The notes beneath the pieces are model-generated. The model searched no databases, was not told the origin of the DNA, and saw only the letters and a list, made by a program, of their open reading frames with translations. Shown piece by piece: positions 4,713 through 41,988 of a DNA stretch of 62,355 nucleotides. The stretch is from an uncultured virus (IMG/VR IMGVR_UViG_3300009161_000002) (lineage: Duplodnaviria > Heunggongvirae > Uroviricota > Caudoviricetes), in the IMG/VR virus record IMGVR_UViG_3300009161_000002; one strand, given 5' to 3'. The stretch's first letter is position 1. Each line of letters opens with the position of its first letter. A program made the position numbers and the translations under genes.

Positions 4713-4717
4713 TTTAA

Positions 4718-7956: not shown

Positions 7957-10900
7957 TTATAGTAAAAATGGTAGCCATGAACTAATATCAATATAACCAC
8001 TGTTGTCACGTACTGAACCACCTTTTTTTGTCTGTTGTTGTGATCCATATACACTGTTTATTATATTTGGATCTGGTACACCACTTCTACCTGGCTTACT
8101 TTGTGAATTCATAACTCTTGACATACATGCTGAATGATCTGTTGCATTAGGATTGTTTTGTTTACACCAATCCATTGCTTCTTGCATTGTCATAGCACTA
8201 CTAGCACCTCTACCATCAACTGTTTTAGGAGTAGGTTTAAAATCCATACGTCCACCAGAAGGTGCATTAACTGCATAGTTAGGATACATTTGATTTAATG
8301 CATCTGTTTTCCACTTATTAGTAATACCTTGAGTATAATAGTTTCTAACATTGTTTCTCATTGCTAATTTAGCATTATCAAACTGTTGATTAGCAATAGT
8401 ATTTTGATCATACAATCTTTGATTAGTTGCTTGTCTTAACATACTATTTTGATTTATAATATCATTTGCTTTTAATTCAAATTGATTAGCAATATTAACA
8501 TTAGAATTATTATACTTAGCTAATATGTCAGCAGCATTTTTAGCAGCAGAACCCTGAACACCTGATGATCTTAAACCTTGAGGTCCAGCAAACTGTGCTA
8601 AAGCATTTGTCTGAATAGCTGCTTGTTCACCATTAGCACCAAGTTCTCTTGTAGGATCTACAAATGTAGGTCTTGGTACACCCAATGATACATTAAAAGC
8701 AGCTGGCATTCTTTTCTTAAGACCCATTAGATCTCCAAATGCTCCTGTAGTTTTGATAGTATCTTGTAACCACATTCCAGGAGGTTCACCTGGTACAGGA
8801 ATATCTTGATCTTCTGTACAAGGAGGACAATTACCATTTACATCAACAGTCATCTCTATTACAGTACCATCAGCTTTTTGACATGGACATTTTTTTGGAA
8901 CTGGATTACATGTACAATTTCCTTGAGCATCATTTGGTTTATAATTAGGTTTATTTGGATCAAGACATTGACAAGGTTCTTCTCCAGGTATATCTTCAAA
9001 TTTTAATCCATGAATAGCTTGTTTTTGATCTTGTGTAGTGTTTGTATAATAGGCATCAATAGGAGATATGTTAGTAACAGCTTGACCTGTTTCATCATTA
9101 TATCCTGTTTGTTTTCCATAAGGAGTAAATCCAGCAAAGCTTGTAATACCTAACAATGACATTTGTGTGTCTTCATCATAGTTACCAGGATTTGCATCAA
9201 GATCTTTCATTAATCTATCTGCTGCAATAAAACCTGCTTGTTGTATGTATGCTTCCTCATCATAAGGTGAATCTGCAGAACCACTTCCAGTTTTTCTATT
9301 CATAGGTAAACCCATGTCTTGAGAAACTGATTGAAGAGATGTAAAACCTGCAGTTTTAATTTTATTATACATGTCTTGAACTTCACTATCTGTTAAATTG
9401 GGATTAGCTTCTTTCACAACATCTTTAAAACCTCTTCTATCTCCTTTTGCATCACCAGAACTTTCAAAGCCTCTTAAGTCACCATTATTATCCTTATACA
9501 TCCAAGAACCATAAAGAGGAATACCTAACTTATCTTTATAAGTTGTAGTTTTCAAGTTACGTTCTTGCATCCTAAGATACTTATTTACAATTTCATCATC
9601 ACTTAATTGACTTGGATCTTTACCAAATCTTTGTTGATAAGTTTTAGAAAAAGCACCACTTTTACCTTTGTATGCTTGTTGGTCTGTTAAAGTATTTCTT
9701 ACTTGTTTTGCAAATGTAGCTTTAGCTTTTGGATCATTAAATGTTTGTGTTAGTGCTTCATATGTAGCAGCAGCAACTTGATTACCATTCCACTTATCTA
9801 AATCAGAACCTGAGTATTTATCATAACCTGTTGCAGAAACTTTTTGTTCTACTTTTTTACCATCAGGTTGTATAACATAAATTTTTTCTTTACCTCTTCC
9901 TGATTGAACATAAGCTCTTCTTAATGCTTGTTGAAATTCAGCATCAGTTTTATAATCAGCACGTTTAACTTCAATACCATCTCTAGCTTTAACCATACGT
10001 GTTATAGGACCAGATGCAGGAATTCTTTTAGGTCTTCCTTGATAGTTTTGAGATATACCTGTACCCATTGACATACCATACTCTGCTTCTGGCATATCAT
10101 AGAAAGGCATATCATAACCACCCATAGACATTCCATAAGCAGCCATTGGTGGTGCCATTTGTTCTTCTTCCATAGGAGGTTGTTGACTCATTGCTTGTTC
10201 TTGTCCACCTTGAGCTTGGGACATAACTTCTTGAATAAGACCTACTGCCTCTTCTTGAGCTACACCCATTTGTGTAAATACTTGTACTATAGCTTCAGGT
10301 GGAAGACCATTTTGTAATAGACTCATAACAACTTGAGCAGGTTCAGCACCTCTTTGTAAAGCACCTTGAACTTCTTGTATAATCTGCATCATCTCATCTT
10401 GACCACCACCTTGAGGACCTTGTTGACCTTGTTGAGCTTGTGCTTGTTGTTCCATCATTGCCATTTCTTCAGGAGATGGTTGTTGCATACCTTCTGCAGC
10501 CCTTCTTAATCTTCTCATACCACCACCATACATCATCATCATTTCTTGTTGAGACATTGGTTGTTCTTGAGCTTGTGCAACTGGTTGACCTTGATTCATT
10601 TCTTGAGCTTGCATCATTTGATTTTGCTCATTCTCTGATTCCATAGTCTGATCTGAATTTTCCTGTTGTTTCATTTGTTTCTTCAACTGGTCATTCAATA
10701 CACTAATCTCTTTAGATGGTAAGATCTGTTCTTCTGTAAGACCTCTAGCATCCATACAAGGTTTAGCAACAGCAGGAATTCCTTGAGGGAAACCTTTCAT
10801 TGATTCTTGTGCTAAAGCTAAACATCCTAACTTAATAACATATTTTTTCATCATTAATTCAGCAGACTTTCTTTCTATAGCATCAGTATCAGGATCTTCT

Positions 10901-11340
10901 AAGATTTTTCTGTATTTCTGAATATCATATTGTTTAGCAAGTTCTGCAGGAGTAAAAGATTTACCCTTACCTGTTTTACCAAACATAGCAAGTACATTAG
11001 GATCTTTTATCATCATACCTCTCGTATCACTGAAAATAAAAGTATCTTCTGGTAAACTTAATGGTACACCACCAGCACTATGTCTTGGTCCTTTTATGAA
11101 TTGATGTTCTGCTAATCCATCACCGTTGATGTCCCCGTATACAGTTTCACCACCTTCTGCTTCTAAGTTAGCTTCATCTCTTGGTACAGCAGTAATATAC
11201 TTACTAGCTATAAGTTTAGGCTTTCCTATATAAGCATTATAGTCTGCTCCACCCATTGCTGGAACATCATTTACTAAAGCACCTTGGACTTGATATCCTG
11301 TTTTTGCTTGAGGTAATTTCTTAATTCTAACTTTTATCAT
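7957..11340 (-). CDS. Virion cargo protein, crAss cargo protein 1-like (1127 aa)
   Basis: ANLEAEGGETV...KGPRHSAGGVP...FIFSD motif of crAss-like cargo proteins; Q/M/E-rich low-complexity tract; Cys cluster; Asn/Gln/Ala-rich helical C-terminus. Confidence 0.65.
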   Translation of the reverse strand: MIKVRIKKLPQAKTGYQVQGALVNDVPAMGGADYNAYIGKPKLIASKYITAVPRDEANLEAEGGETVYGDINGDGLAEHQFIKGPRHSAGGVPLSLPEDTFIFSDTRGMMIKDPNVLAMFGKTGKGKSFTPAELAKQYDIQKYRKILEDPDTDAIERKSAELMMKKYVIKLGCLALAQESMKGFPQGIPAVAKPCMDARGLTEEQILPSKEISVLNDQLKKQMKQQENSDQTMESENEQNQMMQAQEMNQGQPVAQAQEQPMSQQEMMMMYGGGMRRLRRAAEGMQQPSPEEMAMMEQQAQAQQGQQGPQGGGQDEMMQIIQEVQGALQRGAEPAQVVMSLLQNGLPPEAIVQVFTQMGVAQEEAVGLIQEVMSQAQGGQEQAMSQQPPMEEEQMAPPMAAYGMSMGGYDMPFYDMPEAEYGMSMGTGISQNYQGRPKRIPASGPITRMVKARDGIEVKRADYKTDAEFQQALRRAYVQSGRGKEKIYVIQPDGKKVEQKVSATGYDKYSGSDLDKWNGNQVAAATYEALTQTFNDPKAKATFAKQVRNTLTDQQAYKGKSGAFSKTYQQRFGKDPSQLSDDEIVNKYLRMQERNLKTTTYKDKLGIPLYGSWMYKDNNGDLRGFESSGDAKGDRRGFKDVVKEANPNLTDSEVQDMYNKIKTAGFTSLQSVSQDMGLPMNRKTGSGSADSPYDEEAYIQQAGFIAADRLMKDLDANPGNYDEDTQMSLLGITSFAGFTPYGKQTGYNDETGQAVTNISPIDAYYTNTTQDQKQAIHGLKFEDIPGEEPCQCLDPNKPNYKPNDAQGNCTCNPVPKKCPCQKADGTVIEMTVDVNGNCPPCTEDQDIPVPGEPPGMWLQDTIKTTGAFGDLMGLKKRMPAAFNVSLGVPRPTFVDPTRELGANGEQAAIQTNALAQFAGPQGLRSSGVQGSAAKNAADILAKYNNSNVNIANQFELKANDIINQNSMLRQATNQRLYDQNTIANQQFDNAKLAMRNNVRNYYTQGITNKWKTDALNQMYPNYAVNAPSGGRMDFKPTPKTVDGRGASSAMTMQEAMDWCKQNNPNATDHSACMSRVMNSQSKPGRSGVPDPNIINSVYGSQQQTKKGGSVRDNSGYIDISSWLPFLL

Positions 11341-11348
11341 CGGGTTAT

Positions 11349-14300
11349 TTATAAATATTCAACTTGTCCTCCTGCTGCTAAGAATTGTTCTAATTCTTCT
11401 GGAGTCATATATACTTCTTCATCATCCATGTAACCACCATCTTGCATGTAACCACCATATTGAGCAGCATTGCTATTTGCAAAATTACCAAATGTTGCTC
11501 TACTGTTTCTGTCTGATCCCATTTGATCATATCTATACATACCTGTCTTGGAACCAAAATCCACATGATCTCCCGTGTCTGTTAGATTAGAAGCCACTAC
11601 ATTATTCATAGGATCAAACGTGTCTAATAACATGTTATTCTCTATAGGTGCATTCTTTGCTCTTTCAAACATTCCTAATGCACCATTAGCTAAAGCATTA
11701 AAAGCATTAACCCCTGCTTCACCATCAAAATTTCTAGCAGTTTTACGTTGTCTTTCTACACCAACATACTGGTTTTGATTAGGTTCAGGTGCAGGTGTAG
11801 GTGCTTGTGGAATAATTTCTTGTCCTTGATTACCTACTGTGTTACCTGTATTTGCAGTTTCAGCATAAGAACCTGTTCCAGTAGGAGTTATAAAATTAAA
11901 TGGGTTTTGTTGTTGAGGCATGTTATTTGGTGCTCCTGTACCAAACATATTATTTTCAAATTGTGATTGTTGTGAATAAGGATTATAACCAGATTGATTC
12001 TGACCAGCTCCTATACCAAAACCTGTACCAACTTCAAAAGCACCACCCATTCTTTTAAAAGAAGGATTTTTAATTTTATCAACTAAACTTTTAACTTTAC
12101 CATATGAATCCTTTACATTGTCAACTGCATTTTTAGCACCATAGTAAGCTTGATCAATGTTATATCTAGCACCACGTCCTTGTTCATATCTCTCAGCTTG
12201 TCTTAGATTTCTTTGACCACGTTTAGTTTGTTCATCCCATTCTTGATCACTAAATTGAAATCTTTCTTTTGCTTGATCTTCTAAACGATCTCTTCTACTT
12301 TCTTTGTTAGGACTTTCTTTTGGAGTATTACTTTTTACTGAAGGCATTTTCATATTTTTTCTACCACGGTTATCTAACATACCTTCAAGTTGTGTTAAAT
12401 CACCCATAGGAACTCCAGTAGCATTACCATTACCATCAACCTGATAGATATCAATCCATTTTTTTCTACCACCTAATAAACCTTTTTTAGTAGTATAACT
12501 AGCAACAGGTTTATCTGGAATAAGACCGTTATAAGATCTACCATCATTTAAATAATATGGAGATTTTTTTTGTTTAACCCAAGAGCCAGCTGACTGAAAT
12601 ATAGGATTCCATGGTATTAAGTTACGTCCATAACCACCTGGATTTCTAACTTGAGTATAATTATAATTCATTTTTGCTATAGGAATGCACATTTTATATT
12701 GTTCATTCCAAACAGTACCAGGACCACACTGAGTTTTCTTTGGTTGCAAGCTTGCACTTGAGTTTAATACACAAGCAGATCCATTCCATGTATATCCTGC
12801 TGGACAATTACCATTAGTTACTTTTTCCTCTGCACCTTCATTAGTATAATCATTTAATGCGTCATCATAAAAATTCTGATAATCATCATATGTTCTACTA
12901 TCTAAATTAACATCAGCGTCATAGTCTCCATCTGGATTAGCAGCTTCCCAATCTTCTCTTTCACTTTTTCTATTTAATATTTCACTATCTGCCCATTCTT
13001 GATAATTCATTTTATCTTGCATACCTCTTGACTCTCCAGCTCTGTTGGTAATAGTAATACCATCTCTTGCTTGTTCTAGACCGTATGGTTCATAATATTC
13101 TTCTTCATCTCCACCGTAAATAAATTTAGTTAGTGGTTCTTCAGCATCCATATCTACAAACCCTCCAAAAGCTGCTGTAAAATCTGTATTCATAGGTTCC
13201 TCTTCTGCAAGATTTTCTTTGAATCCATCTTTCATTAACATGTTTAATATCTTTGGATTATTCTGTGCATTCTCATAAATATCTTTTGATATTGCTTTAT
13301 TAGAATTATTTTTTAATGTACTTATAAAAGAAGATTTCATGTTAGCAACATCATTTGTCAAAGTGTCTTTTCTTTTACCTTGACCAAAAGCTGCATCTCC
13401 ACCTTCAGCATACATTGAAACCATTCTATCAATAAATCTATTTTTAGAAACACCACCTTTTGCAAAATCATCAGGCAACACTTGATTTTGTGTATTTGGA
13501 TTTACAACATTTGGATCTTGATACCTATAGTAATTATAATCACTTGGAGTTTTTCCTTTTAAAAACTTCATACTATCAGGTATCTGTAATGAATTTGGAT
13601 ACATTAGTGTATCTTCTTGAATAGGTGTAGGATCTAAAACTCTACTTGGCCCTACATCAGTTCCACATGTACATTTACCAAGAGCATTTTTAGGTTGGAA
13701 GTTTGGTAAATTAGGATCCTCACATTGACATGGATTTGCTAATGCATCATATGTTTGATACCCTAGATAACCTAAACCACCACCAATAAGTGTAGTCTTT
13801 AAACCTAATCTATACTTATAGTTAATAGCATTCTTAATATCAGATGCTGTTTGTGAATAAGGTATAGCAGCAGGATCTTGCATATTTGGTCCAAGAGCCA
13901 TGTTTGAATAACCATATACAGGATAATCAACAGATTCAACTCCTTTTGCACCAGTTCTAAATAATTGGTTTAATCCTGTAGTACCATATGTTTCTAAAGT
14001 TCTACCAAGTTTTCCTCTATTACTTAAAGTATCCCATGTATTTGGAGGTAAACCTGTTAGTTCTTCAAGTTTAAAACCTTTTGCACCATCAAAAACATTT
14101 GGAAATGGAGTACGTTCATTATCTCTCAATACCATATCTCCCCAAGCACGTGCTATTGACGTTCCTATTGGTCTATTTACTCTTGATTTTGTTTGAGTAC
14201 CCATTGTTAATGGATTACCTAACGGATCAAATACACTTAAATCACCTGTCTGAGGATCTTGATTGTAATAAAATCTATTTTTAAATGTAACCTCTTTAGC

Positions 14301-15629
14301 TTTTGGAGGAGTTGTACCAAAAGGTAAACTTTGATTAGGACCAAAAGTATGTTTAAATTCAAAAAATTTATTACCTGCATCATCCACACCACCAATAACT
14401 TTTGTTTGCGGTGGATATACACCACTAATTAAACCTTCTTGGTTAGACATATTACCGTAATGTTCTAATGTAAAAGGTTCATTAGTACCGTATTCTAATT
14501 TTCCAATTATACGTTTAACATCTTCTTGGTCTAATACTAATCTATCTGCTTGTAAACTACCATCAGTTCCACCAGCATATGTTCCGTTCTGACTAAACAC
14601 TCCTGTTTTTGGAGCAGCTCCATTAATAACATTCCAAAGTTCAGTTCTATTCTGTGTAAATGGAGTAGCTAATTTTGGAGCAAACTTTCCTCCTACATAA
14701 GGTAACCTAGTCATTGCATCACCAATACCAGTAAATACAGGTAAAGCTTTACGTAGAGTAGATATATTAGATAAAGGATTAGCTTTATTAGCATATCCTA
14801 TAGTTGGGATATACTCAGCTAATTTTTGAAGTGCTGATTTAGGAACTTGCAAACCAGTTCGTGCTCGTGGTAAATAATCTTGAGGTTGATAAGAATCAGA
14901 TGCACTTCTGTAGTCACCTAAATAAGATGCTAAATCTGGAAATTCTTGTATCTCTTGTGCACCTGGTGTCATAGCAATTAAGTCTTCCATAGAGAAAGGT
15001 TTTTCTTCAGATGTTCTTCCCGGTGTACCATACTGATTTATTACAGCTTGTTCTTCACTTATCTGTTTATTAGGATTCATATCATCAAATTCAGGATACT
15101 CACCACCATCATCAAAGTAACCACCATATTTAAAAGCACTTTCCTCTTCATCCTGTGTCATTTCTAAAGCAGAATTCTGATTCATCTGTGCATCTTCCTC
15201 ATCATATAGACCACCATCAGAAATTGCTAGTTCTTCTTGCTCTGCATCTGAAGCTGCTCTTTCATTATCCTCATCTATTTGTTGTTGTGGATCAACTCCT
15301 TGTTCTGGTTCAGTTTTATCTTTAACTACTTCAGGATCTACATAACCTTCCTCAGCAAGTTTAGACATAGCAGATTTAATAAGCATCACTGATGTATTCT
15401 CATCTAATGCATACTCATTAATAAGTTGATTATATAAAATATCAGGTGTTGCATCATTTTTTAATGATATATAAACCTGATCATATATTTGATTTAGTTT
15501 AGCCGAATCCATACTTGGAGCTCCAACTTCCATACCCATAGCTGCTTTCTCTAAAAACTTAGCAGTTTTGTTATAGTACCCTGGAGTTTCTCCTGGAAGT
15601 GCTTTTCTAATTCTTACTTGCTTCTTCAT
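11349..15629 (-). CDS. Modular putative cargo protein (1426 aa)
   Basis: Many xxxGG motifs, a hydrophobic segment (TTLIGGGLGYLGY), small Cys modules (CPAGYTWNGSAC, CGPGTVWNEQYKMC), shared N- and C-terminal tags. Confidence 0.6.
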   Translation of the reverse strand: MKKQVRIRKALPGETPGYYNKTAKFLEKAAMGMEVGAPSMDSAKLNQIYDQVYISLKNDATPDILYNQLINEYALDENTSVMLIKSAMSKLAEEGYVDPEVVKDKTEPEQGVDPQQQIDEDNERAASDAEQEELAISDGGLYDEEDAQMNQNSALEMTQDEEESAFKYGGYFDDGGEYPEFDDMNPNKQISEEQAVINQYGTPGRTSEEKPFSMEDLIAMTPGAQEIQEFPDLASYLGDYRSASDSYQPQDYLPRARTGLQVPKSALQKLAEYIPTIGYANKANPLSNISTLRKALPVFTGIGDAMTRLPYVGGKFAPKLATPFTQNRTELWNVINGAAPKTGVFSQNGTYAGGTDGSLQADRLVLDQEDVKRIIGKLEYGTNEPFTLEHYGNMSNQEGLISGVYPPQTKVIGGVDDAGNKFFEFKHTFGPNQSLPFGTTPPKAKEVTFKNRFYYNQDPQTGDLSVFDPLGNPLTMGTQTKSRVNRPIGTSIARAWGDMVLRDNERTPFPNVFDGAKGFKLEELTGLPPNTWDTLSNRGKLGRTLETYGTTGLNQLFRTGAKGVESVDYPVYGYSNMALGPNMQDPAAIPYSQTASDIKNAINYKYRLGLKTTLIGGGLGYLGYQTYDALANPCQCEDPNLPNFQPKNALGKCTCGTDVGPSRVLDPTPIQEDTLMYPNSLQIPDSMKFLKGKTPSDYNYYRYQDPNVVNPNTQNQVLPDDFAKGGVSKNRFIDRMVSMYAEGGDAAFGQGKRKDTLTNDVANMKSSFISTLKNNSNKAISKDIYENAQNNPKILNMLMKDGFKENLAEEEPMNTDFTAAFGGFVDMDAEEPLTKFIYGGDEEEYYEPYGLEQARDGITITNRAGESRGMQDKMNYQEWADSEILNRKSEREDWEAANPDGDYDADVNLDSRTYDDYQNFYDDALNDYTNEGAEEKVTNGNCPAGYTWNGSACVLNSSASLQPKKTQCGPGTVWNEQYKMCIPIAKMNYNYTQVRNPGGYGRNLIPWNPIFQSAGSWVKQKKSPYYLNDGRSYNGLIPDKPVASYTTKKGLLGGRKKWIDIYQVDGNGNATGVPMGDLTQLEGMLDNRGRKNMKMPSVKSNTPKESPNKESRRDRLEDQAKERFQFSDQEWDEQTKRGQRNLRQAERYEQGRGARYNIDQAYYGAKNAVDNVKDSYGKVKSLVDKIKNPSFKRMGGAFEVGTGFGIGAGQNQSGYNPYSQQSQFENNMFGTGAPNNMPQQQNPFNFITPTGTGSYAETANTGNTVGNQGQEIIPQAPTPAPEPNQNQYVGVERQRKTARNFDGEAGVNAFNALANGALGMFERAKNAPIENNMLLDTFDPMNNVVASNLTDTGDHVDFGSKTGMYRYDQMGSDRNSRATFGNFANSNAAQYGGYMQDGGYMDDEEVYMTPEELEQFLAAGGQVEYL

Positions 15630-15646
15630 AACGTGTTATATATATA

Positions 15647-15657
15647 AATATACTAAA
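15647..15657 (-). promoter_or_regulatory. Conserved promoter-like motif TTTAGTATATT
   Basis: One of seven intergenic TTWGTATATT copies upstream of minus-strand starts. Confidence 0.65.
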
Positions 15658-15686
15658 TTTTAATTTAATGAATACACTTTAAAAGT

Positions 15687-18600
15687 TTACTCATCTTCAA
15701 TGATATAACCATCTTTAATATACTGATCAATTTCTTTTCTAGATAGACTAGTTACAACCCCACCTTTTTTATTTTTCCAACCAGGTACATCACTAATTTG
15801 TTTAAAGGCATTACCTCCTGTAAATGGGTTTGCTGTCTCTTTATCCCATCTATCACGGGCCTGTGTATTCATTTTCTTAACAATTTGTTTTCTCCATTTT
15901 TCAAGTTGTTCTGGTGTAGCATTTTGTATATCTTCCATTTTTAAACCAAGACCACCTCTCATTTCCATAACAACATCTTTAGCAGGAGCTGTAGTTAAAT
16001 AATTATCTTTTTGTGCTTTTAACAAATCCTGATAAGTACGTGGTAATGTATCTCCTATTCCATTTACATTTTTTAAACTATTAGGGTTTAACATTCCTTG
16101 ATTTCTTACTGAATCTTGCCAAGGTAAATGTTGTTGTAACAAAGCTTCTTGACTTGGTGTTGTAAACTTACTTCTAAAATTTGGCATAGATGCATTAGGA
16201 AATAAGGTAGAAAATAATTCTTCTCTACTGTTATCACCACTAAATGCATTAAACATAGCCATAGCTGGATTTTCAGGTTCTATATCATCAAATGCATTTC
16301 TTGCTGCTTGCCAATCACTTTGTTGATTTACAAGATCCGTTAATTCATTTTCTGTATAGAAGTCATTTTTACCTGGTACCCATTGAGGATCTGTACCCAT
16401 GTTCATCATAGCTTGACGTGCTGCCCAACCATCTGAGAAATCTTTAAAATCAAAATCACCTACTCCATTAAATAAATCTTTTCCATATTGAGGAAGACCT
16501 GACATGTATTTATTAAGAGAATCATTAGCATTTTTTAAACCTTCTTTTTTCCAATCCAAACCTTGATAATCTGCAGGATCAATATTGTACCATTCATCAC
16601 CAGGATGAGGTTCATCACCAAATTTTATTAAAGAAGTACCCCCTAAGTCAGTAGGTGAATGTGTTAAATCAATAGTATGAGAATCCATAAGTGGTAACTT
16701 ATGTATAGATTGTTGAACGCTATTCATCAAAGGTTTTGAAACGTTTCTCATATTTGGTATATGACTAGGAAGATTTCCTAAGTCATCTAAACCAGATAGT
16801 GTACTTCTAAATTCAGGAGTTGATTTTAATAACTTACTGAGATCACTTCCTGTTTTAACTATTCTTCCTAAGTTAGCTTTTACAAGACCACCATCTTTTC
16901 TTTCTTCTGAAGTTAAATCTAATTCTACATAATTATTAGTTGTTCCACCACTAATATATTGTTTAGGAACTTCTTGATATCCTTTTAACCAATGTGGTTT
17001 ATCTCCAAATACTCTTATGTCAGATGCAGGAATTTCACGTAATGCATTACCAGTTTCAGGATCTATAACTCTATGTGCATAATGTCTTCCTTTAATAGGA
17101 AATCCTGTTACTGGATTTATTTCACCTCTTTTAAATGTAGGCAATGCTGTTTCAAAAACAACAGATCCTTCTGGTTTTGCATATGACATATCAGCATATC
17201 CTTTTTGAAATGATGGAAATGATGTAGGTCTTGGAGGTAACATAAAATTTGTACCTTTAACTAATTGTGCAGGTGCTGTATTATTACTTCTTAATATTCC
17301 TGTATTAATAAAATCTTTATAAGCATCCATTCCTGCTACTCTATAGGATTTATTTAAATTATTTAATTTTTCTGCCCAAGGATTAATTTTATATGTATTA
17401 TTAAAAAAAGGAATAGCATTTAAAGGGTTTTTACCTAAAGCTTGTAATCCTTTAACAATTAAACCGGTTCTACCTTTAACTAAACCACCATCTGAATAAC
17501 CAAGTAATGGGTAATTACCTGTTCCAAGATAACCTTTTGGATTTTGCTCTAATACAGAAAATTCTCCTAAACCTAATCTTTTACTTGCTTTGTTTAAAGG
17601 ATTAGTTATAGATTCATATATAGGCTTTGCTCCAGTAATATTTGGATTACCAAGAACAAGACCTGAACCTGGAGTAGCTGCATTGTACATACCTGTAAAT
17701 CTAGAAGGTAAACTATTAACTGCTACAGTACCAGGAGTACGTAATGAGTTTAATGTTTGTAATGTACCTACGGCAGGTTTTATACCCCTTATAAGAGGAG
17801 CTGCTCCCCAGTAACCTTCAAGTGCATCTAAAGCAGCACTTCCATAGTTACCTTGTTGGAAATTATCATATGCACCAGATATATTTTCTGGTAACTTTGC
17901 CATAAATCCAGCATTAAAAAAAGGACTATTAAATGCTTGTAATCCTTGTTTGAATCCTTGTCCTGAAAGTAATGCATTTGTGCCTTTCATGATACCTCTT
18001 TTTGTACCTATGTCAATTAATTCATCTCCTGCAGCACTTAAAAATTCTCCTTTATCATAACCCTTTCTTAAATTACTTCCAATCTTAAAAGGATTTGCAG
18101 CCTGAAGCATAGTATAATCTCTAACTATAGAAAGAGGATTATCATTTGGCATAAGCCCCATATCAACACCAGTTTCATTTTGAATATCTTTTCTTGTATC
18201 ATAAGATAAATTACTATTTCCCCACATTTCTTCACGAGGATTCATTGCAAAATATGCTGCATCAAAAGGATTAGTTAGTACATCTTTTATTTTAGAACCT
18301 GTAGTATTTTCATTAATACCAGTTCCTTGCTTCATTGTATCACGATTCTGATTAAGTGTAAATAAAGTATTTACCCTCTCATTTAATACGTCATTATATG
18401 TTTGCTTTTTATTACCAGTTTTTTGTCCTAATAATTTTTGCATTGCATCATTAGGATTCTCTTGAAATGATTTTAATATTTCTAGTTTAGCTTTAGAATT
18501 AGAACCAGCTGCATCTAATGCTTGTTTAAGAACTTGTTTTGTTGTATCCATTCCTAAATTAGAAGCATATTCTCCAAAAGCATTGTTAAAGTCTTCAGCT

Positions 18601-19724
18601 TTAGCAGTGTTTGCAGCAGCTGATGCATTCTTTTGATTAAGATTTTGATTCCTTAACATGTTAGTATTTCTAACATTAGCCATAGCATCATCTTTTGCAA
18701 AAGTAAGTCCATCATACTGACCTGATTTTCCATACTTATCCATCCAATCTGAATAAGCTTTATTACCTCTATCAATTTTTTTAGATTGATAAGTAAGAAA
18801 GTCTCCTAAATTATTTGGACCACTGTGATATTTTCTTTCCCAAGCATCCATTGGATCACTTGATTCTAAGAAAATTTTACGATCCTGCTCAACTTTAGAT
18901 GCATCTGAACCAGGTATAGAATCTATATTATTATAAAGTTCAGAAAAAGCATCATCTATTATTTTATTTGTAGGTTTTTCAAATGTGGCTTTTAAATTAG
19001 ATTGTTCCCCTAATTTAGGAGAGAGTCCTTTAATAACTTGATCTACAGGTTTACCTTGCTGAATAGCTTTTGTAAGTATGTTCTGAGTTACCTCTGCTTC
19101 ATAGTTAGCTTTAGCTGCTGCCATTAAATCCCCAAGTTGTTCTTTTACTTGTTCAGGATCTAATCCCCAGTAGTTTTTAAATTGATCTGCTTGAAAACCA
19201 TTTTTAATAATCCTATCTTGAACTAAGTTTAAAGGATACACTTCTACAAATCCATCTTTCTTATGAACAAGAAAATTATTTTTTAATTCAGCTTCTAGTT
19301 CTGGTGTAACTTCAGATTCAGGAAATTTTTTATAAGGCTCTATTTTATCTTGTTTCTTAGATTTAGCAAATGTTTCAAGATATCTATTAGTATGATCAGC
19401 TTGCCATTGAGCACGTTCATCATTTGTTTTACTACGTATATCATTTATGTCTTTAACTAAAGCTATTTTTCTAGCATCCAGTTTAACTTTCCAGGCTTCT
19501 TGTTCTGCATTAGAAGCAGCAATATATTCTGATTCAGTTAAACATTCTCCATTAAAATCATATTTACCTGGAGGACATCCTTGACCCTTCATATAACCTG
19601 GCAATGATTCATTCCAATATGATGGTTGTTGTACACCTTGTACTTCTACCATAGGAGTATTGTCTGATTCAACAATCTTACCTTTTTTAGCTTGTGGAAT
19701 ACTTGTTATTCTGTACTTTGCCAT
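15687..19724 (-). CDS. Modular putative cargo protein with candidate ADP-ribosyltransferase-like module (1345 aa)
   Basis: N-terminal KYRITSIPQAKKG tag, CPPGKYDFNGEC module, internal YR...TG..R...PSF.KG...Y...VFE module, C-terminal LSRKEIDQYIKDGYIIEDE tag. Confidence 0.6.
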   Translation of the reverse strand: MAKYRITSIPQAKKGKIVESDNTPMVEVQGVQQPSYWNESLPGYMKGQGCPPGKYDFNGECLTESEYIAASNAEQEAWKVKLDARKIALVKDINDIRSKTNDERAQWQADHTNRYLETFAKSKKQDKIEPYKKFPESEVTPELEAELKNNFLVHKKDGFVEVYPLNLVQDRIIKNGFQADQFKNYWGLDPEQVKEQLGDLMAAAKANYEAEVTQNILTKAIQQGKPVDQVIKGLSPKLGEQSNLKATFEKPTNKIIDDAFSELYNNIDSIPGSDASKVEQDRKIFLESSDPMDAWERKYHSGPNNLGDFLTYQSKKIDRGNKAYSDWMDKYGKSGQYDGLTFAKDDAMANVRNTNMLRNQNLNQKNASAAANTAKAEDFNNAFGEYASNLGMDTTKQVLKQALDAAGSNSKAKLEILKSFQENPNDAMQKLLGQKTGNKKQTYNDVLNERVNTLFTLNQNRDTMKQGTGINENTTGSKIKDVLTNPFDAAYFAMNPREEMWGNSNLSYDTRKDIQNETGVDMGLMPNDNPLSIVRDYTMLQAANPFKIGSNLRKGYDKGEFLSAAGDELIDIGTKRGIMKGTNALLSGQGFKQGLQAFNSPFFNAGFMAKLPENISGAYDNFQQGNYGSAALDALEGYWGAAPLIRGIKPAVGTLQTLNSLRTPGTVAVNSLPSRFTGMYNAATPGSGLVLGNPNITGAKPIYESITNPLNKASKRLGLGEFSVLEQNPKGYLGTGNYPLLGYSDGGLVKGRTGLIVKGLQALGKNPLNAIPFFNNTYKINPWAEKLNNLNKSYRVAGMDAYKDFINTGILRSNNTAPAQLVKGTNFMLPPRPTSFPSFQKGYADMSYAKPEGSVVFETALPTFKRGEINPVTGFPIKGRHYAHRVIDPETGNALREIPASDIRVFGDKPHWLKGYQEVPKQYISGGTTNNYVELDLTSEERKDGGLVKANLGRIVKTGSDLSKLLKSTPEFRSTLSGLDDLGNLPSHIPNMRNVSKPLMNSVQQSIHKLPLMDSHTIDLTHSPTDLGGTSLIKFGDEPHPGDEWYNIDPADYQGLDWKKEGLKNANDSLNKYMSGLPQYGKDLFNGVGDFDFKDFSDGWAARQAMMNMGTDPQWVPGKNDFYTENELTDLVNQQSDWQAARNAFDDIEPENPAMAMFNAFSGDNSREELFSTLFPNASMPNFRSKFTTPSQEALLQQHLPWQDSVRNQGMLNPNSLKNVNGIGDTLPRTYQDLLKAQKDNYLTTAPAKDVVMEMRGGLGLKMEDIQNATPEQLEKWRKQIVKKMNTQARDRWDKETANPFTGGNAFKQISDVPGWKNKKGGVVTSLSRKEIDQYIKDGYIIEDE

Positions 19725-19726
19725 TA

Positions 19727-22700
19727 CTATATTTTTTCAAACGTATAACCTAATTTTTCTAACTTCTTCATAGTAGCTTCATCTATCTCATCTCCAAGTG
19801 TATAATCAATAGAACCTCCGTCTTCCCATTGTTTAACTGTTTTAAAAGTTTTAGGATCAACTAAAAAATTATTTTCAATATTAAATGGTTTACCACCTAC
19901 TAAACTTAATGCTTCTACATTTTGTAATGGTTTAAAATAAGTAGAACTTAAATATTTTTTTGCAAGTGAACTAGGTTTTATAAATGCAGAACCTCTTTTT
20001 TCAAAAGGATTTAAATCCCATTTATCATAAGCTTTCCATTGCATACCTTCTGGAGTATCACGGACATCCCATCTATAACCACCTCTTACACCATATGAAT
20101 CATTATCATATATAGCATCTGTAAATTCTGGATCAGGACTTTTTGCAACTTTATATGTTTGAATCCATGGATGATGATAAACAGGTTGACCCAAGAATTC
20201 ATCAATCTGACTTCTTCTTAAATCAGCCCAACGATTATCTCCAGAGTTAATTTTTTGCAAAGGGTGTGGATTTAAATCATAAAAGTCTTTTGTTAATCCA
20301 ACTAACATGTCTCTTTTACCATCCCATGCTTGACCTTTAAAACTATTAGCTATTATATCATTTTTTCTCTCAGCAAAAAATTGAGGAGTATGTTGAAGAC
20401 CTAACATCTTGTAAGTGTTATCACCTATTTGTTCAAGAGTATTATATTCTTGTGGTAGCTTTAATCCAACTGCCCATGCATCTAATCTTCTTTTACCTAT
20501 ATCCTCAAGTTGCATCATAATTTCTGGATCATAATCTTTGATAGCCATTATTTTATCAGCTTCAGAAAATTTATCCCACTGTGATTTTGATACATCTAAG
20601 TTATTAAGTAATTTAGATAGATATTCAGGTGCCCCATATTTTAAAGACATACCTGTTCTAAAAGCTCTATTATCATTACTAAAAGTATTCTTATATAACT
20701 CAGACGGCATTCCTGTAAATTTTTCTATTATGCGATAATTAGCAGGATTAACTCCTTTGTATAAAAAAGCTCTTAATGCATTACCAGGAGTTAATTTAGA
20801 AGCAACTTTTGCAATACCACCTAGATTATATTTTCTAGTAAGTTTATAATTTGGTATTCTTATTTCTCCCCAATCTCCTCCAGTAACATTTTCAAAATAT
20901 GCTTTTTCCATTAAACCTCTACCCAGCAAATCTGCATTTATTCTGTCAATCATTTCTGCAGACATCTTTGGATTAAAGACTCTTCCTGTACGAAAACCTG
21001 TTGGCACACCTTCTATACCATCAAATAACTTACTCTTTTCAGATACAAAATTTAAAGGAATATGATTTTCAAAATTCATATCCCAGTCTTTTCTTTTTGC
21101 CATGTTTAACAATAGATTATAAGAATCTAAACTTAAACTATGTGGTTCTAATATAGAAGGAAAAGCTTGAGGAAAAGAATCATTAATTAATTTCATTGCT
21201 CTACCTGCTTCCATAGGATTAGTCATTTTAGTTGCAAAATGAAAAATATTATCTTCTACTTTATTATTAGGATAAACTGAAAAGTAACCACTATCACCAG
21301 CTATTGTCAAAGGAAATTTTAATTGTTTTACATCCAAATCAATTGGTATATTTCTTAAATCTACTACACTATTTTCATTAGGTGGCAGATAAGTAGTAAC
21401 ACCACGCTGAGTAAGCGGTGTTATAAGAGTTCTAGAAGCAGGTCTTCTTGCTGTTTTACCAACAGATATTAAACTTTTTAAAAGAACTGGTAAACCTTCT
21501 CTAGCTTTAGTCAGTTCTGGAACAGATATATCTTCTATAATAAAACCACCTTTAGCATATTCTTGAATTTCTTCTGGTGTAAGATCTGCTTCGATGTAAT
21601 CTCCACCATCTTGTTTTTTAGGAAACATAGATTTACCATCTTTTTCAAATTGTTCTTCACGAACTCTTGCTTCTCCTTCTTCTGTAGTTGGATCTTGATA
21701 CATTAAAGCATTTGCACCTGGAAAACCTTCTGTAAATTCTTGTAATTTATTTCTTGGTATAAATTGTAAATTAGGATTAGCTTTGATCATTGCATCTGTT
21801 TGGGCTTCTAATTCAGTATTTCTTCTGTCATAGTAATTACCTATTGCTTGATCTGATGCTACAGTATTATTAGGTCTTTGACCTAAAAAACCAGCAGTAC
21901 TTGCACCACCTCCTAAGTTTTGCAAATGGTGATACTTTTCATGTTCTGTCCACCAACCATTATTTTCTATTGATCCAGGTCTTGTATCTTGACTTATTTC
22001 ACCTGTTGCTGCATTATATCCTGTATTCTCATCAGTTTCAATTACTTCTGGTTCTTGCCATTCTACACATTGACCATTATAAATAACGTATCCTTCTGGA
22101 CATTCTGATTCTCCACCATCTTGTGCATGTACTAATCCTTGACCACCACATTTATGACATGTAGTAATATCCTTACCACCATCTGCAGCATCCCATTCCC
22201 AACTACACTTTTTACATGTTACTTCTTTAGTAAGTAAAGCACCACCCTCTTCATAGTACTTAGCATTAGGATCATACACTTTATTCTTTCTAGACGTAGG
22301 TTTAGCAAAGAATGAATTTTCAGTAAAGAACTTATTTGTAGCCTCTAAACTTCTAGAGTATCCTCTAGAGTTTTTCTTTCTAGGCATCTTTGGTAAAGAA
22401 CCACCTTTTTTAAAATCATCTGGAGTTTCTAAAGTAGGGTCGTTATCTTCGTAATAGTTACCTGCTATTTCTTCTCCCGGTTGAATGTTCTTAAGAGCTC
22501 TTAAATATCTTTTGTTACCTTGAATTATAGAACCAGCATTGTATGCATCATCAGAATGATTGTAATATTTCCCTATTACAGGAGTCTCTTTACTTTTTAA
22601 ATAAGTCTCACCATCTTTTTGGAAAGATGATTTAATATGTGAAAGACCAATTATCTCACCAGCTCTGATTGGTTCATCAGCAAACAAACCTTTACCTTGT

Positions 22701-22867
22701 ATATTAGATTTTTGTATACTAACTTTTTTGTAAGGTTTCTCATTTAAACCACCTTTACTCATCAAAGGATTTCCACTAGGGTCTACCAACACATCTTGTT
22801 TTTTAGCAGGTGCTTTAGCACTGCCAAGATTTTTGAGTGAATCTATAAGAACTTTTTTATTATACAT
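19727..22867 (-). CDS. Polyvalent cargo protein: SET domain + Zn ribbon + HExxH zincin + further modules (1046 aa)
   Basis: SET motifs SNIQGKGLFA..I..GE.I, YNHS...N, ALKNIQPGEEI..NY; CKKC...CHKC; HEKYH with downstream EGEAR; start overlaps muzzle stop (TAATG). Confidence 0.75.
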   Translation of the reverse strand: MYNKKVLIDSLKNLGSAKAPAKKQDVLVDPSGNPLMSKGGLNEKPYKKVSIQKSNIQGKGLFADEPIRAGEIIGLSHIKSSFQKDGETYLKSKETPVIGKYYNHSDDAYNAGSIIQGNKRYLRALKNIQPGEEIAGNYYEDNDPTLETPDDFKKGGSLPKMPRKKNSRGYSRSLEATNKFFTENSFFAKPTSRKNKVYDPNAKYYEEGGALLTKEVTCKKCSWEWDAADGGKDITTCHKCGGQGLVHAQDGGESECPEGYVIYNGQCVEWQEPEVIETDENTGYNAATGEISQDTRPGSIENNGWWTEHEKYHHLQNLGGGASTAGFLGQRPNNTVASDQAIGNYYDRRNTELEAQTDAMIKANPNLQFIPRNKLQEFTEGFPGANALMYQDPTTEEGEARVREEQFEKDGKSMFPKKQDGGDYIEADLTPEEIQEYAKGGFIIEDISVPELTKAREGLPVLLKSLISVGKTARRPASRTLITPLTQRGVTTYLPPNENSVVDLRNIPIDLDVKQLKFPLTIAGDSGYFSVYPNNKVEDNIFHFATKMTNPMEAGRAMKLINDSFPQAFPSILEPHSLSLDSYNLLLNMAKRKDWDMNFENHIPLNFVSEKSKLFDGIEGVPTGFRTGRVFNPKMSAEMIDRINADLLGRGLMEKAYFENVTGGDWGEIRIPNYKLTRKYNLGGIAKVASKLTPGNALRAFLYKGVNPANYRIIEKFTGMPSELYKNTFSNDNRAFRTGMSLKYGAPEYLSKLLNNLDVSKSQWDKFSEADKIMAIKDYDPEIMMQLEDIGKRRLDAWAVGLKLPQEYNTLEQIGDNTYKMLGLQHTPQFFAERKNDIIANSFKGQAWDGKRDMLVGLTKDFYDLNPHPLQKINSGDNRWADLRRSQIDEFLGQPVYHHPWIQTYKVAKSPDPEFTDAIYDNDSYGVRGGYRWDVRDTPEGMQWKAYDKWDLNPFEKRGSAFIKPSSLAKKYLSSTYFKPLQNVEALSLVGGKPFNIENNFLVDPKTFKTVKQWEDGGSIDYTLGDEIDEATMKKLEKLGYTFEKI

Positions 22868-41124: not shown

Positions 41125-41586
41125 TTATTTCTTTTTGGACTTTACAGAACCACCTTTTTTTTGTTTAATAATACTATCCATTATAGGTGTATTAGACTTT
41201 GGTTTATTAGTTATAGAATCCATTTGAGTTTTGTACATTTCCTGTGACATAGCTGATTTTTTTGCATTACTATATTTATCTCTAGCTTGTTGTACAATAG
41301 TTTGTTTATCTAAATAATCCATTCTAGGATTATTAGGAGCAGAAGATGTAGATTGAGTCTTATCAAGAATTGATTGGTTCACAGTATCTACATTACTTCT
41401 ATTATTTGTATTTAATATACCATCTTTATTAATAGAATAGTATCGAGCTTCACGAATAGCATCTGCTACAGCAGGTACAACAATACCATTTCTAGCTTTA
41501 GTTAAAGAGTTTTTTACAACCTTTTGTCTAGCCTCATTTGCTTTTCTAAAAAAAGTTAATGGGTTTTCCTTATTAGTCTTTTTCAT
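41125..41586 (-). CDS. Basic hypothetical virion protein (153 aa; start codon uncertain)
   Basis: Lys-rich termini, KARNG and KQKKGG motifs. Confidence 0.65.
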   Translation of the reverse strand: MKKTNKENPLTFFRKANEARQKVVKNSLTKARNGIVVPAVADAIREARYYSINKDGILNTNNRSNVDTVNQSILDKTQSTSSAPNNPRMDYLDKQTIVQQARDKYSNAKKSAMSQEMYKTQMDSITNKPKSNTPIMDSIIKQKKGGSVKSKKK

Positions 41587-41745: not shown

Positions 41746-41988
41746 TTACTTTTTCTTTGCATTTCTTTTTGCACCAGTAATAATATCTGCTCTTGTAATT
41801 TTATTTTTTGGAGCAGCTAATGCAGCTAACTTAGCACGTTTTGAAACAGTACCACCTTTTTTCATCATTCCATTTTTACCATCTGTTTGACCAGCACCAG
41901 CAGCATAAGGAATACCAGCAGCTATTGAACCACCTTTTGCCATTTTCTTTTTTATAGTGGGTCCACCACAACTCATACAATTACCCAT
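41746..41988 (-). CDS. Small basic protein (80 aa)
   Basis: CMSC, MAKGG and MKKGG motifs, KLAALAAPKNKITRADII. Confidence 0.7.
   Translation of the reverse strand: MGNCMSCGGPTIKKKMAKGGSIAAGIPYAAGAGQTDGKNGMMKKGGTVSKRAKLAALAAPKNKITRADIITGAKRNAKKK

Follow-up and report, generated by a model that had tools for sequence, protein, structure and literature searches.

Why should four adjacent giant ORFs of one virus carry the same short motif, ending in Gly-Gly, again and again? The question is raised by a window of 62,355 nucleotides (the whole stretch of DNA analysed here), for which an initial annotation had proposed that the motif acts as a packaging or cleavage signal, loading a cassette of effectors into the phage head and releasing them as separate enzymes.

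Genomic context of the four giant ORFs

The window comes from a divergent member of the crAss-like phages; the crAss major capsid protein (MCP), ring proteins, portal, and TerL are all encoded within it. The block under study begins at the stop codon of the muzzle gene, and the four giant ORFs follow directly:

22867..28410, (-): muzzle protein gene (Pfam crAss_MUZ, 3.8e-22; PHROG 37948, 8.6e-39)
19727..22867, (-): candidate cargo ORF 1, 1046 aa, mosaic polyvalent protein (homologues, AlphaFold model)
15687..19724, (-): candidate cargo ORF 2, 1345 aa, mosaic (sequence, homology, tail HMM)
11349..15629, (-): candidate cargo ORF 3, 1426 aa, conserved (orthologues; tail HMM, 1.1e-8)
7957..11340, (-): candidate cargo ORF 4, 1127 aa, conserved (sequence, orthologues)

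The position right downstream of the muzzle gene is that of Crassvirus cargo protein 1. In phage crAss001, gp45 (C1) and gp46 (C2) occupy this slot and, according to the accessible text, were detected in virions (Bayfield et al., 2023, PMC10172136). With the muzzle gene adjoining and the other virion genes in the window, the setting is also the late, virion-gene context of a polyvalent protein. By analogy, the four ORFs probably encode virion cargo (ejection) proteins, carried in the particle and injected; since no cultured member exists, their packaging and ejection are argued from synteny with crAss001. Giant ORFs also lie farther downstream, at the RNAP-block position, and have zero or one motif copy each.

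Modular architecture of ORF 1

ORF 1 has 265 mosaic homologues, covering 5-100% of its length, and the following parts were delimited in it:

22748..22867, (-): conserved N-terminal leader MYNKKVL...MSKGG, aa 1-40 (homologue N-termini; pLDDT below 50)
22418..22747, (-): SET domain module, aa 41-150, flanked by MSKGG and FKKGG (Pfam, structure matches)
22130..22228, (-): CxxC...CxxC Zn-ribbon module, aa 214-246, between YEEGG and AQDGG (sequence; model strands 214-246)
21608..22105, (-): zincin-like module with HExxH, aa 255-420 (invariant H309, E310, H313)
21482..21616, (-): complete internal junction, aa 418-462, with KQDGG cap, acidic tail, and basic head SVPELTKAREG (tail HMM, 5e-22)
20831..21373, (-): folded module A, aa 499-679, with no assigned function (pLDDT about 75-85), followed by YNLGG at 20816-20830
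19826..20680, (-): folded module B, aa 730-1014, with no assigned function (pLDDT about 77-92)
19730..19825, (-): C-terminal tail element EDGG...LGYTFEKI, aa 1015-1046 (tail HMM, 6.1e-13; G1017 invariant)

The leader opens 89 of the 269 Met-initiated proteins in a set of 279 proteins. The module after it belongs to the SET-domain lysine methyltransferases by both fold and profile: Pfam SET matched at 1.9e-6 (28.6 bits, cut-off 22.4), the profile of alignment A1 matched PBCV-1 vSET at 4e-6, VIA-align gave Z 12.8 and rmsd 3.0 over 100 aligned residues (model range 39-153), Foldseek matched vSET and 4rz0, and structural matches to SET domains cover model residues 36-156. The Zn ribbon is flanked by homology breakpoints at 200-219 and 250-269. 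In the zincin-like module, for which ESM gave weak leads to SprT-like and LPD23 (score 0.83), H309, E310, and H313 are invariant in 40 copies at 28-98% identity. The module is optional, occurring in two of five relatives and missing from the records of three that retain the motifs; these records are 62-82% complete, with the cargo block whole in relatives G001 and G002. A breakpoint peak falls at the internal junction. HSPs end at 688, after module A, and module B is swapped as one unit (q687-1020 against L009).

The motif had been placed at domain borders in this ORF, and the model bears this out. AlphaFold gave confident segments at 41-150, 499-679, and 730-1014 and a weaker one at the Zn ribbon (214-246), and the Gly-Gly pairs at 39, 155, 208, 251, 421, 440, 683, and 1017 lie at segment edges or where pLDDT is below 50. 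Six others coincide with no breakpoint cluster: four (241, 663, 929, and 991) are inside modelled domains, and two (230 and 319) fall where the Zn-ribbon and zincin-like modules are modelled with low confidence. ORF 1 combines several effector or enzymatic domains in one chain (SET, Zn ribbon, the invariant HExxH module, and the confident folds A and B), in line with the earlier view of these ORFs as modular, cargo-type (polyvalent) proteins.

Enrichment of the motif

All 20 xxxGG and four KAxxG strings quoted in the initial annotation were recovered in the ORFs to which they had been assigned, and the four ORFs hold 47 Gly-Gly runs (9+17+7+14). The bare dipeptide is weakly enriched: counted with overlaps it occurs 51 times, where glycine content predicts 39.3 (1.3-fold). 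A refined motif, [YFWMH]x[KDENQSY]GG or [KQ][KDENQ]GG, which was defined after the data had been seen, occurs 21 times against 3.96 expected, a number attained in 0 of 2,000 shuffles, and the other 32 ORFs (14,816 aa) have 8 copies against 5.4. The head-like xA[KR]xG appears seven times in the four ORFs (1.0 expected; 0/2,000 shuffles get to 7). Three small basic proteins had also been said to bear the motif, and all of them do (5 copies against 0.30 expected; none of 2,000 shuffles reached 5; assigned from sequence and motif test):

41125..41586, (-): small basic protein with LTKARNG head and C-terminal KKGGSVKSKKK
41746..41988, (-): small basic protein with MAKGGS and MKKGGT
55692..55997, (-): small basic protein with YETGG and C-terminal QKKGGIIKTKK

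The enrichment is restricted to these proteins. In a 98-kb relative the motif is likewise found in four cargo ORFs and in small basic proteins, besides two copies in the MCP and single copies in four other ORFs. The idea of a general packaging signal is not well supported either, given the near lack of the motif in the giant ORFs at the RNAP-block position.

Proteins rich in Gly-Gly and of low complexity could yield such strings by chance, as the small excess of the plain dipeptide and the low-complexity, acidic or Gln-rich parts of ORF 3 and ORF 4 would allow. The shuffles and the breakpoint test described below speak against chance, as do tail HMM E-values down to 5e-22, conservation among orthologues, and the 363 clusters obtained at E<=1e-10; a compositional artefact is extremely improbable and is regarded as refuted.

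A composite connector

The true unit is composite, with a cap, [Y/F]-[K/Q]-[K/D]-G-G, an acidic tail of ~28 residues, and a basic head. Every module ends in the cap, and a full joint has the tail and the head in addition. The tail, an acidic strand-helix-strand with the consensus GGYIEAELTEEEIEEYRKGGYIVED, has the pattern L-[TS]-x-x-E-I-x-x-Y-x-x-G-[GY]-[YF]-I-[IV]-E-[DE], and the head is a K/R-rich strand followed by [ILV]P-x-A-[KR]-x-G; the conserved unit comes to ~45 residues in all, with a predicted helix. Few columns of alignment A1 are nearly invariant, and the junction residues Y437, G440, G441, L452, and G458 of ORF 1 are among them. AlphaFold did not fold the fused joint (pLDDT 25-48), the alignment used being shallow and mosaic.

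A tail HMM gave 337 hits in 187 of the 279 proteins, 162 of them ending <=5 residues from the C-terminus; among 147 distinct internal tails, 133 have a head-like motif or a further Gly-Gly in the 25 aa after them, against 25% of random windows. This grammar of cap, tail, and head marks every joint as well as the gene borders. In the remaining ORFs its elements are as follows:

19665..19724, (-): ORF 2 head
17445..17501 and 16845..16961, (-): ORF 2 junctions
15690..15776, (-): ORF 2 C-terminal tail
15570..15629, (-): ORF 3 head
15102..15137, 13398..13469, and 13059..13178, (-): ORF 3 Gly-Gly clusters
14853..14873, (-): ORF 3 LPRARTG
11352..11468, (-): ORF 3 C-terminal tail
11248..11340, (-): ORF 4 head MIKVRIKKLPQAKTG
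10489..10530, (-): ORF 4 YGGGMRRLRRAAEG
9970..9999, (-): ORF 4 KARDG
7960..8034, (-): ORF 4 variant C-terminus KKGG...SWLPFLL

Of the 5 orthologues shown, whose identities go down to about 51-54%, 4-5 retain the listed Gly-Gly motifs of ORF 3 and ORF 4; some other Gly-Gly sites of these ORFs vary.

In public data the tail profile is found in 921 protein clusters (50% identity). Its best matches bear cell-wall hydrolases, SET, and ART-PolyVal domains and are therefore phage polyvalent proteins. Such proteins have been proposed to be delivered with the DNA and possibly processed (Iyer, Burroughs, Anand, de Souza, and Aravind, 2017, PMC5512222). The present family agrees with the polyvalent proteins of that paper, as far as its accessible text goes, in giant size, multidomain build, late or virion gene context, and shuffled enzymatic modules. 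Family members with the tail element carry ART-PolyVal (P0228, P0229), lysozyme, SLT, and Amidase_2, and SET and the zincin-like module occur as well; for the window protein itself, the leads to the described domain repertoire are the weak ESM ones to LPD23 and SprT-like. The family differs from the described proteins in the conserved inter-domain connector, which that text does not describe, and in the optional nature of its metallopeptidase-like module. No description of a Gly-Gly connector system was found in the literature, and the connector joining swappable modules is a real, previously undescribed pattern.

Module exchange and gene borders

The initial annotation had suggested asking whether related genomes exchange modules at the motif, and they do. 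An all-versus-all comparison of 121 family members gave 24,414 internal ends for HSPs of 80 aa or more, and 53.2% of these ends are no farther than 8 aa from a Gly-Gly, compared with 15.2% at random positions (maximum 15.7% in 200 simulations) and at most 22.7% for 13 other dipeptides of like abundance, these counts not being independent because related sequences have breakpoints in common. Since the joints are conserved, they would double as sites of cassette exchange. Gly-Gly is encoded mostly by GGT GGT, as for any glycine; the DNA thus offers recombination little homology, and it is the protein sequence that is conserved.

At each of the three borders among the four ORFs, a tail precedes and a head follows. 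A tail element closes the upstream protein at 3/3 borders in the window and 3/3 in G002, and in a second lineage at the first border in all seven loci; downstream proteins begin with K/R-rich head sequences. Consecutive gene products carry matched C- and N-terminal elements, and the identical type of joint is found either inside a protein or split by a gene border, the tail being one C-terminus and the head the next N-terminus. The first gene varies from 606 to 1713 aa in one lineage and from 1046 to at least 2200 aa here.

The joints might then be passive seams, structural caps and leftover gene termini recognised by no factor, conserved since domains end and start there and a recombinant fused at such a point keeps both its reading frame and its fold. 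The equivalence of gene borders and internal joints, the great differences in module length between close relatives, and the predicted disorder of the joints are consistent with this. A passive linker would not, however, retain ~28 specific residues across 921 clusters. Against it also stand the paralogous copies inside one protein, just 28-50% identical to the reference copy, the ordinary codon use with conservation at the protein level, and the presence of the motif in the non-modular small basic proteins. We consider purely passive seams improbable.

Are the connectors cut?

Under a processing code, a protease of the phage or of the host would cleave after Gly-Gly, either inside the head or once the polyproteins have been injected, freeing separate enzymes and removing tail and head peptides. 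Conservation is stronger N-terminal of the fixed Gly-Gly (positions -6, -3, -2, and -1) and the residue after it is variable, as would also fit a protease site, and the motif lies in linkers predicted to be disordered. The likely target compartments of the modules differ (cell-wall hydrolases versus SET and ART domains), ORF 1 has an invariant HExxH module, and G002 encodes elsewhere a putative DUF2201_N metallopeptidase with a VWA domain. Polyvalent proteins were predicted to be processed by their own metallopeptidase domains, and processing of P1 DarA and DdrB is noted in the accessible text (PMC5512222). The small basic proteins with MxKGG bring to mind the core proteins of adenovirus, which are cut by adenain.

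Against this stand the length of the conserved unit (~45 residues), far beyond a cleavage site, the many copies that are exact protein termini, and the HExxH module, absent from three of five relatives' records (62-82% complete, the cargo block being whole in G001 and G002) with joints kept. In crAss001 C1, an AFGG lies within the ordered segment 425-552, and the available text of that study makes no mention of cleavage, proteolysis, or protease (PMC10172136). Profile searches of the 39 window ORFs found no protease family, agreeing with the earlier remark that no dedicated protease is recognisable there apart from the HExxH module; nor was any found in 32 top tail-bearing proteins or, besides DUF2201_N, in 49 ORFs of G002. 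Peptidase_C5 (PF00770) had no match at E<=1 in either G001 or G002 (records 75-82% complete), so that searches of the window, G001, and G002 gave no virus-encoded cognate Gly-Gly protease of the adenain type. Like substrates of adenain or ASFV pS273R, the joints have a fixed Gly-Gly and an upstream hydrophobic residue, in polyproteins and small basic proteins, though this residue lies one position farther from the Gly-Gly than in the adenain consensus; unlike them, their conserved context is much longer. Cleavage is somewhat disfavoured and nothing shows that the connectors are cut; a processing code, the main rival to an uncut chain, is judged unlikely.

Comparison with other systems

crAss001 gp45 also has about ten x-x-x-GG motifs and a basic C-terminus. 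The motifs include SAYGG, FAEGG, KAFGG, AKDGG, NAFGG, INEGG, FAYGG, and KAKGG, and two of them, SAYGG209 and AFGG425-428, stand where the virion-ordered segments 214-245 and 425-552 (PMC10172136) begin or directly before that point. The likeness to the joints appears to be one of pattern only: BLAST gave E>0.2, hhalign of A2 against gp45 424-556 a probability of 0.7% (sole match 14 residues, FIFSD/YVFSD), and the tail HMM no significant match to gp45-47. Pfam crAss_CARG1 (PF25725), which matches gp45 at 2.3e-66, gave no match at E<=10 in ORFs 7957, 11349, and 15687 and none at E<=0.01 in ORF 19727; AlphaFold modelled the N-terminus of ORF 7957 too poorly (pLDDT 36.8) for comparison with the CARG1 domain. 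Unlike crAss001 cargo, the window proteins are much larger, mosaic, and enzyme-bearing.

For an uncut chain, N4 vRNAP was counted as precedent. This giant protein is ejected, has been likened to beads on a string, and has to unfold on its way through the tail (PMC13434306); it is reported as packaged unprocessed. It belongs to another phage family and has other domains, and a repeated connector motif is not described for it in the available text (PMC13434306). The arrangement at gene borders calls to mind the docking domains between subunits of modular PKS/NRPS assembly lines. There, short matched elements end one protein and open the protein encoded next to it, and a junction of the same type may be covalent within one protein. 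The comparison is one of working principle, with no homology; binding at the window joints is hypothetical, and its role would be to put ejected cargo in order rather than to channel substrates.

Proposed role of the connectors

We favour, with a probability of roughly 0.45, joints that act as uncut hinges and docking connectors. Each cargo ORF would be a chain of independently folding modules (SET, Zn ribbon, HExxH module, and undefined folds), in which intact hinges would let modules unfold and refold singly during threading through portal and tail. The joints may also be recognised handles by which the chain is loaded into the particle or kept there, and they possibly clip consecutive proteins head to tail; this hinge or handle function is inferred. 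More speculative, and on present evidence doubtful, is a further step, in which acidic tail and basic head would be the halves of a split clasp stringing separately translated cargo into an ordered, non-covalent chain, and each module with its Gly-Gly cap would be a plug-in cassette in a general grammar of loading and threading that hundreds of crAss-like lineages use. If so, the order of genes after the muzzle gene would set the order of ejection.

Gene neighbourhood of the putative cargo genes

The long ORFs of the window all lie on the minus strand and have about 31-33% G+C. The following genes were assigned with Pfam and PHROGs:

22867-28410, minus strand, crassvirus muzzle protein
28413-29450, minus strand, ring protein 1
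29450-30112, minus strand, ring protein 2
44681-46297, minus strand, crassvirus major capsid protein
47675-50419, minus strand, portal
50426-52630, minus strand, large terminase

The nearest portal among GenBank phages, that of Leptolyngbya phage Lbo-JY46, is just 34% identical, and the window thus belongs to a divergent, uncultured crAss-like phage. The muzzle gene directly precedes four cargo ORFs (in gene order 19727-22867, 15687-19724, 11349-15629 and 7957-11340, minus strand), the slot taken by gp45 and gp46 in crAss001, both detected in virions of that phage according to the sections available of its structural description (PMC10172136). From this synteny with crAss001 we infer that the four cargo proteins are packaged and ejected.

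Several neighbouring genes deserve mention. A 315-aa protein in the head and structural block (42292-43239, minus strand) matches LCIB_C_CA (PF18599, 5.7e-26), a beta-carbonic-anhydrase-like domain that is unexpected among phage virion genes, and the same block encodes a DUF5856 protein (39897-40415, minus strand). A 90-aa basic protein (42008-42280, minus strand) matches DUF6321 (1.8e-21) and aligns with the C-termini of eight PHROG families that differ greatly in length. It appears to be a C-terminal module used in common. A 418-aa acidic protein encoded between portal and capsid (46326-47582, minus strand) has no Pfam or PHROG match and is, by gene position, probably the scaffolding protein. 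Near the high end of the window, a holin-family match (56766-57263, minus strand; 2.1e-4) falls just under the cut-off.

A conserved 1060-aa ORF follows the four cargo genes (window 3-7900, minus strand), and the 98-kb IMG/VR relative G002 has giant ORFs of 2502, 3623 and 2113 aa at 58895-86813, with a LysM domain in the 2113-aa product. These ORFs received no Pfam or PHROG assignment and are almost without GG motifs. Their place in the gene order would make them the RNA-polymerase-associated block, but BLAST of this downstream block against crAss001 gp47 gave E 0.11 at best.

Enrichment of the GG motif

Every motif string quoted in the initial annotation was found in the cargo ORFs. Enrichment over background was strong for a refined motif in the cargo ORFs and the small basic proteins, and only modest for the bare GG dipeptide (51 observed against 39.3 expected in the cargo ORFs). 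The refined motif, [YFWMH]x[KDENQSY]GG or [KQ][KDENQ]GG, was written after inspection of the data, and the main conclusions therefore rest on the independent tests described below. That the motif is a mere artefact appears extremely improbable.

Table. Motif counts (observed; expected; shuffles reaching the observed count)
Refined motif, four cargo ORFs: 21; 3.96; 0/2000
Refined motif, other 32 ORFs: 8; 5.4; 89/500
Refined motif, three small basic proteins: 5; 0.30; 0/2000
Head-like xA[KR]xG, cargo ORFs: 7; 1.0; 0/2000

A reading of K-K-G-G as a Shine-Dalgarno or ribosome-pausing signal was rejected, GGT GGT encoding 29 of 47 GG pairs and GGA standing first in only 7, against 34% GGA among glycine codons overall. 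This scarcity may reflect avoidance of AGGAGG-like strings within genes.

Exchange of modules at the motif

Among IMG/VR relatives the first cargo gene encodes 1046, 1178, 1261, 1727 or at least 2200 aa and the second 1079 to 2083 aa, with the termini of both proteins conserved despite these length differences. Pairwise HSPs with the window protein end at residues 215, 423/424, 688 and 1000-1020, all beside a GG at a module border (junction GG). A large database yielded 265 homologues of the ORF 19727 protein, covering 5-100% of the query, some of which carry Amidase_2, lysozyme, VanY, YkuD or chitin-binding domains, and their HSP breakpoints on the window protein concentrate at the motifs. 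In an all-against-all comparison of 121 proteins (HSPs of at least 80 aa), 53.2% of 24,414 internal HSP ends lay within 8 residues of a GG, compared with 15.2% for random positions (maximum 15.7% in 200 simulations) and at most 22.7% for 13 other dipeptides of similar abundance; these ends are not independent events, though the effect is large. These results bear out the proposal that modules are exchanged at the motif in related genomes.

A logo of 598 junction contexts differed clearly from that of 319 non-junction GGs, with L/I at position -6 relative to the GG, Y/F at -3, K/Q/A/R at -2, K/D/E/N at -1 and L/I/T at +4. In the conserved ORFs 11349 and 7957, 4-5 of the 5 orthologues shown retain the named GG motifs, which persist down to about 51-54% identity, even in low-complexity acidic stretches; some other GG sites vary. 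A reading of the joints as passive seams is judged improbable.

Position of the motif relative to folded domains

In the AlphaFold model of ORF 19727-22867 (30 sequences, mean pLDDT 59), three segments are predicted with confidence (residues 41-150, 499-679 and 730-1014), and a Zn ribbon at 214-246 is weaker. The suggestion that the motifs mark domain borders was confirmed for this ORF: the GGs at 39, 155, 208, 251, 421, 440, 683 and 1017 lie at segment edges or in stretches of pLDDT below 50. Four others (241, 663, 929 and 991) fall within modelled domains, and two more (230 and 319) in poorly predicted parts of the Zn-ribbon and zincin-like modules; no breakpoint site coincides with any of these six. 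In the alignment of this ORF's family, the few nearly invariant columns include G155, G156, Y437, G440, G441, L452, G458, G1017 and G1018.

Structural matches to SET domains cover model residues 36-156, exactly from MSKGG to FKKGG; the best has Z 12.8 and rmsd 3.0 over 100 aligned residues (VIA-align), and Foldseek also matches SET. This cargo module, a SET-domain lysine methyltransferase (22418-22747, minus strand), has PBCV-1 vSET among its nearest solved relatives. With the 1046-aa model as query, the Foldseek and VIA-align lists held SET domains throughout, with no fold match for the two other confident segments or the HExxH module. A phmmer search of ORFs 15687, 7957 and 11349 against PDB sequences gave nothing at E<0.2.

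Anatomy of the joint

The listed GG contexts show a composite three-part unit: a cap (aromatic-x-x-GG), an acidic tail of about 28 residues, as in KQDGG-DYIEADLTPEEIQEYAKGGFIIEDI, and a basic head such as SVPELTKAREGLPV. The tail forms the C-terminus of three of the four cargo proteins, and heads begin the three downstream ones (MAKYRITSIPQAKKG, MKKQVRIRKALPGETPG and MIKVRIKKLPQAKTG). Four tails served as the seed of an iterated HMM (consensus YKDGGYIEAELTEEEIEEYRKGGYIVEDISVPQL). Searched against 279 proteins from the window, the loci and the database homologues, it gave 337 matches in 187 proteins, and 162 of these matches end within 5 residues of the C-terminus. Among 147 distinct internal tails, a head-like motif follows within 25 residues in 58 and another GG in 91; one or the other follows in 133, compared with 25% of random windows. 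A strict regular expression for the full N-terminal type of head matched inside none of 336 proteins, internal heads having the shorter form VPELTKAxxG.

The downstream N-terminal strand YRITSIP and the last acidic strand of the fused tail, FIIEDISVP, occupy the same place before S-[IV]-P, and a split joint would thus have two strands of opposite charge, a reading made from sequence. An uncontrolled complex prediction of tail (alignment A3, residues 21-60) with head (alignment A2, of the ORF 7957 N-terminus, residues 1-48) scored 0.21 against a mark of 0.32 and speaks neither for nor against binding. The AlphaFold model of the ORF 7957 N-terminus has a pLDDT of 36.8, too low for its fold to be compared with that of crAss001 C1.

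Several other known signals were rejected. Double-glycine bacteriocin leaders have a similar helix-GG appearance, but the second G is often Y here and the spacing differs by one position; the head, LPxAKxG, is two residues longer than the sortase motif LPXTG; GlyGly-CTERM does not fit for lack of a transmembrane helix, nor does SEA-type G|S autoproteolysis, given the variable residue after the GG.

Cargo protein C1 of crAss001 (gp45) has about ten x-x-x-GG motifs resembling the window joints. In the virion it is ordered at 214-245 and 425-552, as given in the accessible text of PMC10172136; the first comes just after SAYGG209, and the second begins AFGG, so that this GG is contiguous with the domain. 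Only the pattern connects C1 with the joints described here: with gp45-47 as queries, BLAST found nothing below E 0.02 among the window ORFs, and neither hhalign nor Pfam comparison with crAss_CARG1 lent support.

Distribution of the connector

Apart from two copies in the major capsid protein and one each in four other ORFs, all copies of the motif in G002 fall in the four cargo ORFs and in a few small basic proteins; the three downstream giant ORFs (2113-3623 aa) at the RNA-polymerase-block position have 0-1 copies. A 38-position tail profile run on 1.84 billion representatives recovered 921 clusters at E<=0.001, of which 363 reached E<=1e-10; most of the proteins have 2-5 copies. Pfam domains were found in 17 of the top 32 matches (Amidase_2, VanY, SLT, lysozymes, GH19, LysM, DUF2272, SET and ART-PolyVal), with no general protease among them.

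In a second lineage (7 loci), the muzzle gene is followed by a variable polyvalent gene of 606-1713 aa ending in the tail, and the next genes start MAKRKV(I/R)... and then M.KKL.KLPRARTG. The locus of homologue P0244 was left out because the contig end precedes the C-terminus, and no locus was found for homologue P0259. The short forms that lie on long contigs consist of little other than connector, as in a 195-aa example built from leader, QEGG, tail, YKQGG, Zn ribbon, AKKGG and tail. Against 50,697 GenBank phage records, tblastn with ORF 19727, ORF 11349 and a 48-aa junction gave no match.

Cleaved sites or uncut connectors

We favour, at a probability of roughly 0.45 for the reading as a whole, joints that are uncut connectors with a seam acting as a recognised handle. 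The cargo would be built as beads on a string whose joints stay uncut; the GG caps would isolate the modules, and the tail/head seam would be recognised for loading, holding or clasping and would tolerate splitting into two genes. An ejected multi-domain protein that unfolds and is left unprocessed has a precedent in the N4 vRNAP, as treated in the consulted parts of PMC13434306 and PMC5512222.

Alternatively, the cargo could be cleaved after the GG, the joints being protease sites, which we consider doubtful. The shape of the junction logo and the location of the joints in linkers predicted by AlphaFold to be disordered are consistent with cleavage, as is the invariance of the HExxH triad across 40 copies of the module spanning residues 255-420. 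Polyvalent proteins have also been predicted to be processed by their own metallopeptidase domains, DarA and DdrB of P1 being cases of such processed proteins (PMC5512222, in the parts available). However, the HExxH module occurs in only 2 of 5 relatives' records, whereas joints occur in all, and the conserved unit greatly exceeds a cut site in size and is often the very protein terminus. As already indicated in the initial annotation, no dedicated protease is recognisable apart from the zincin-like HExxH module: Pfam and PHROGs found no protease family in the window, and the lack of Peptidase_C5 (the adenain family, PF00770) in G002 and a further relative, G001, also counts against cleavage. 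G002 does encode, elsewhere, a 394-aa protein (L016:15186-16367, minus strand) with a DUF2201_N putative metallopeptidase, a VWA-like domain and a PhageMetallopep match, a point in favour of cleavage; this gene, the only peptidase-like one found in G002, lies in the replication-side region, outside the window-equivalent part. In the text available of PMC10172136, the strings cleav-, proteoly- and protease occur 0 times each.

Significance

The crAss-like phages rank with the most abundant viruses known, and the protein that they pack and inject amounts to megadaltons. Both polyvalent proteins and the cargo proteins of crassviruses have been described before; the connector grammar is absent from the literature searched on crAss-like phages (Gly-Gly, polyprotein cleavage, polyvalent protein), covered partly by title and abstract. 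If the joint delimits exchangeable effector cassettes, it would provide a parsing rule for hundreds of giant unannotated cargo proteins. It would also supply defined peptides for tests of cleavage or of binding to portal, ring and capsid proteins, and might offer a handle by which foreign proteins could be loaded into phage particles. The concept of polyvalent proteins is also refined by the addition of a connector grammar and of a rule for fission and fusion at gene borders.
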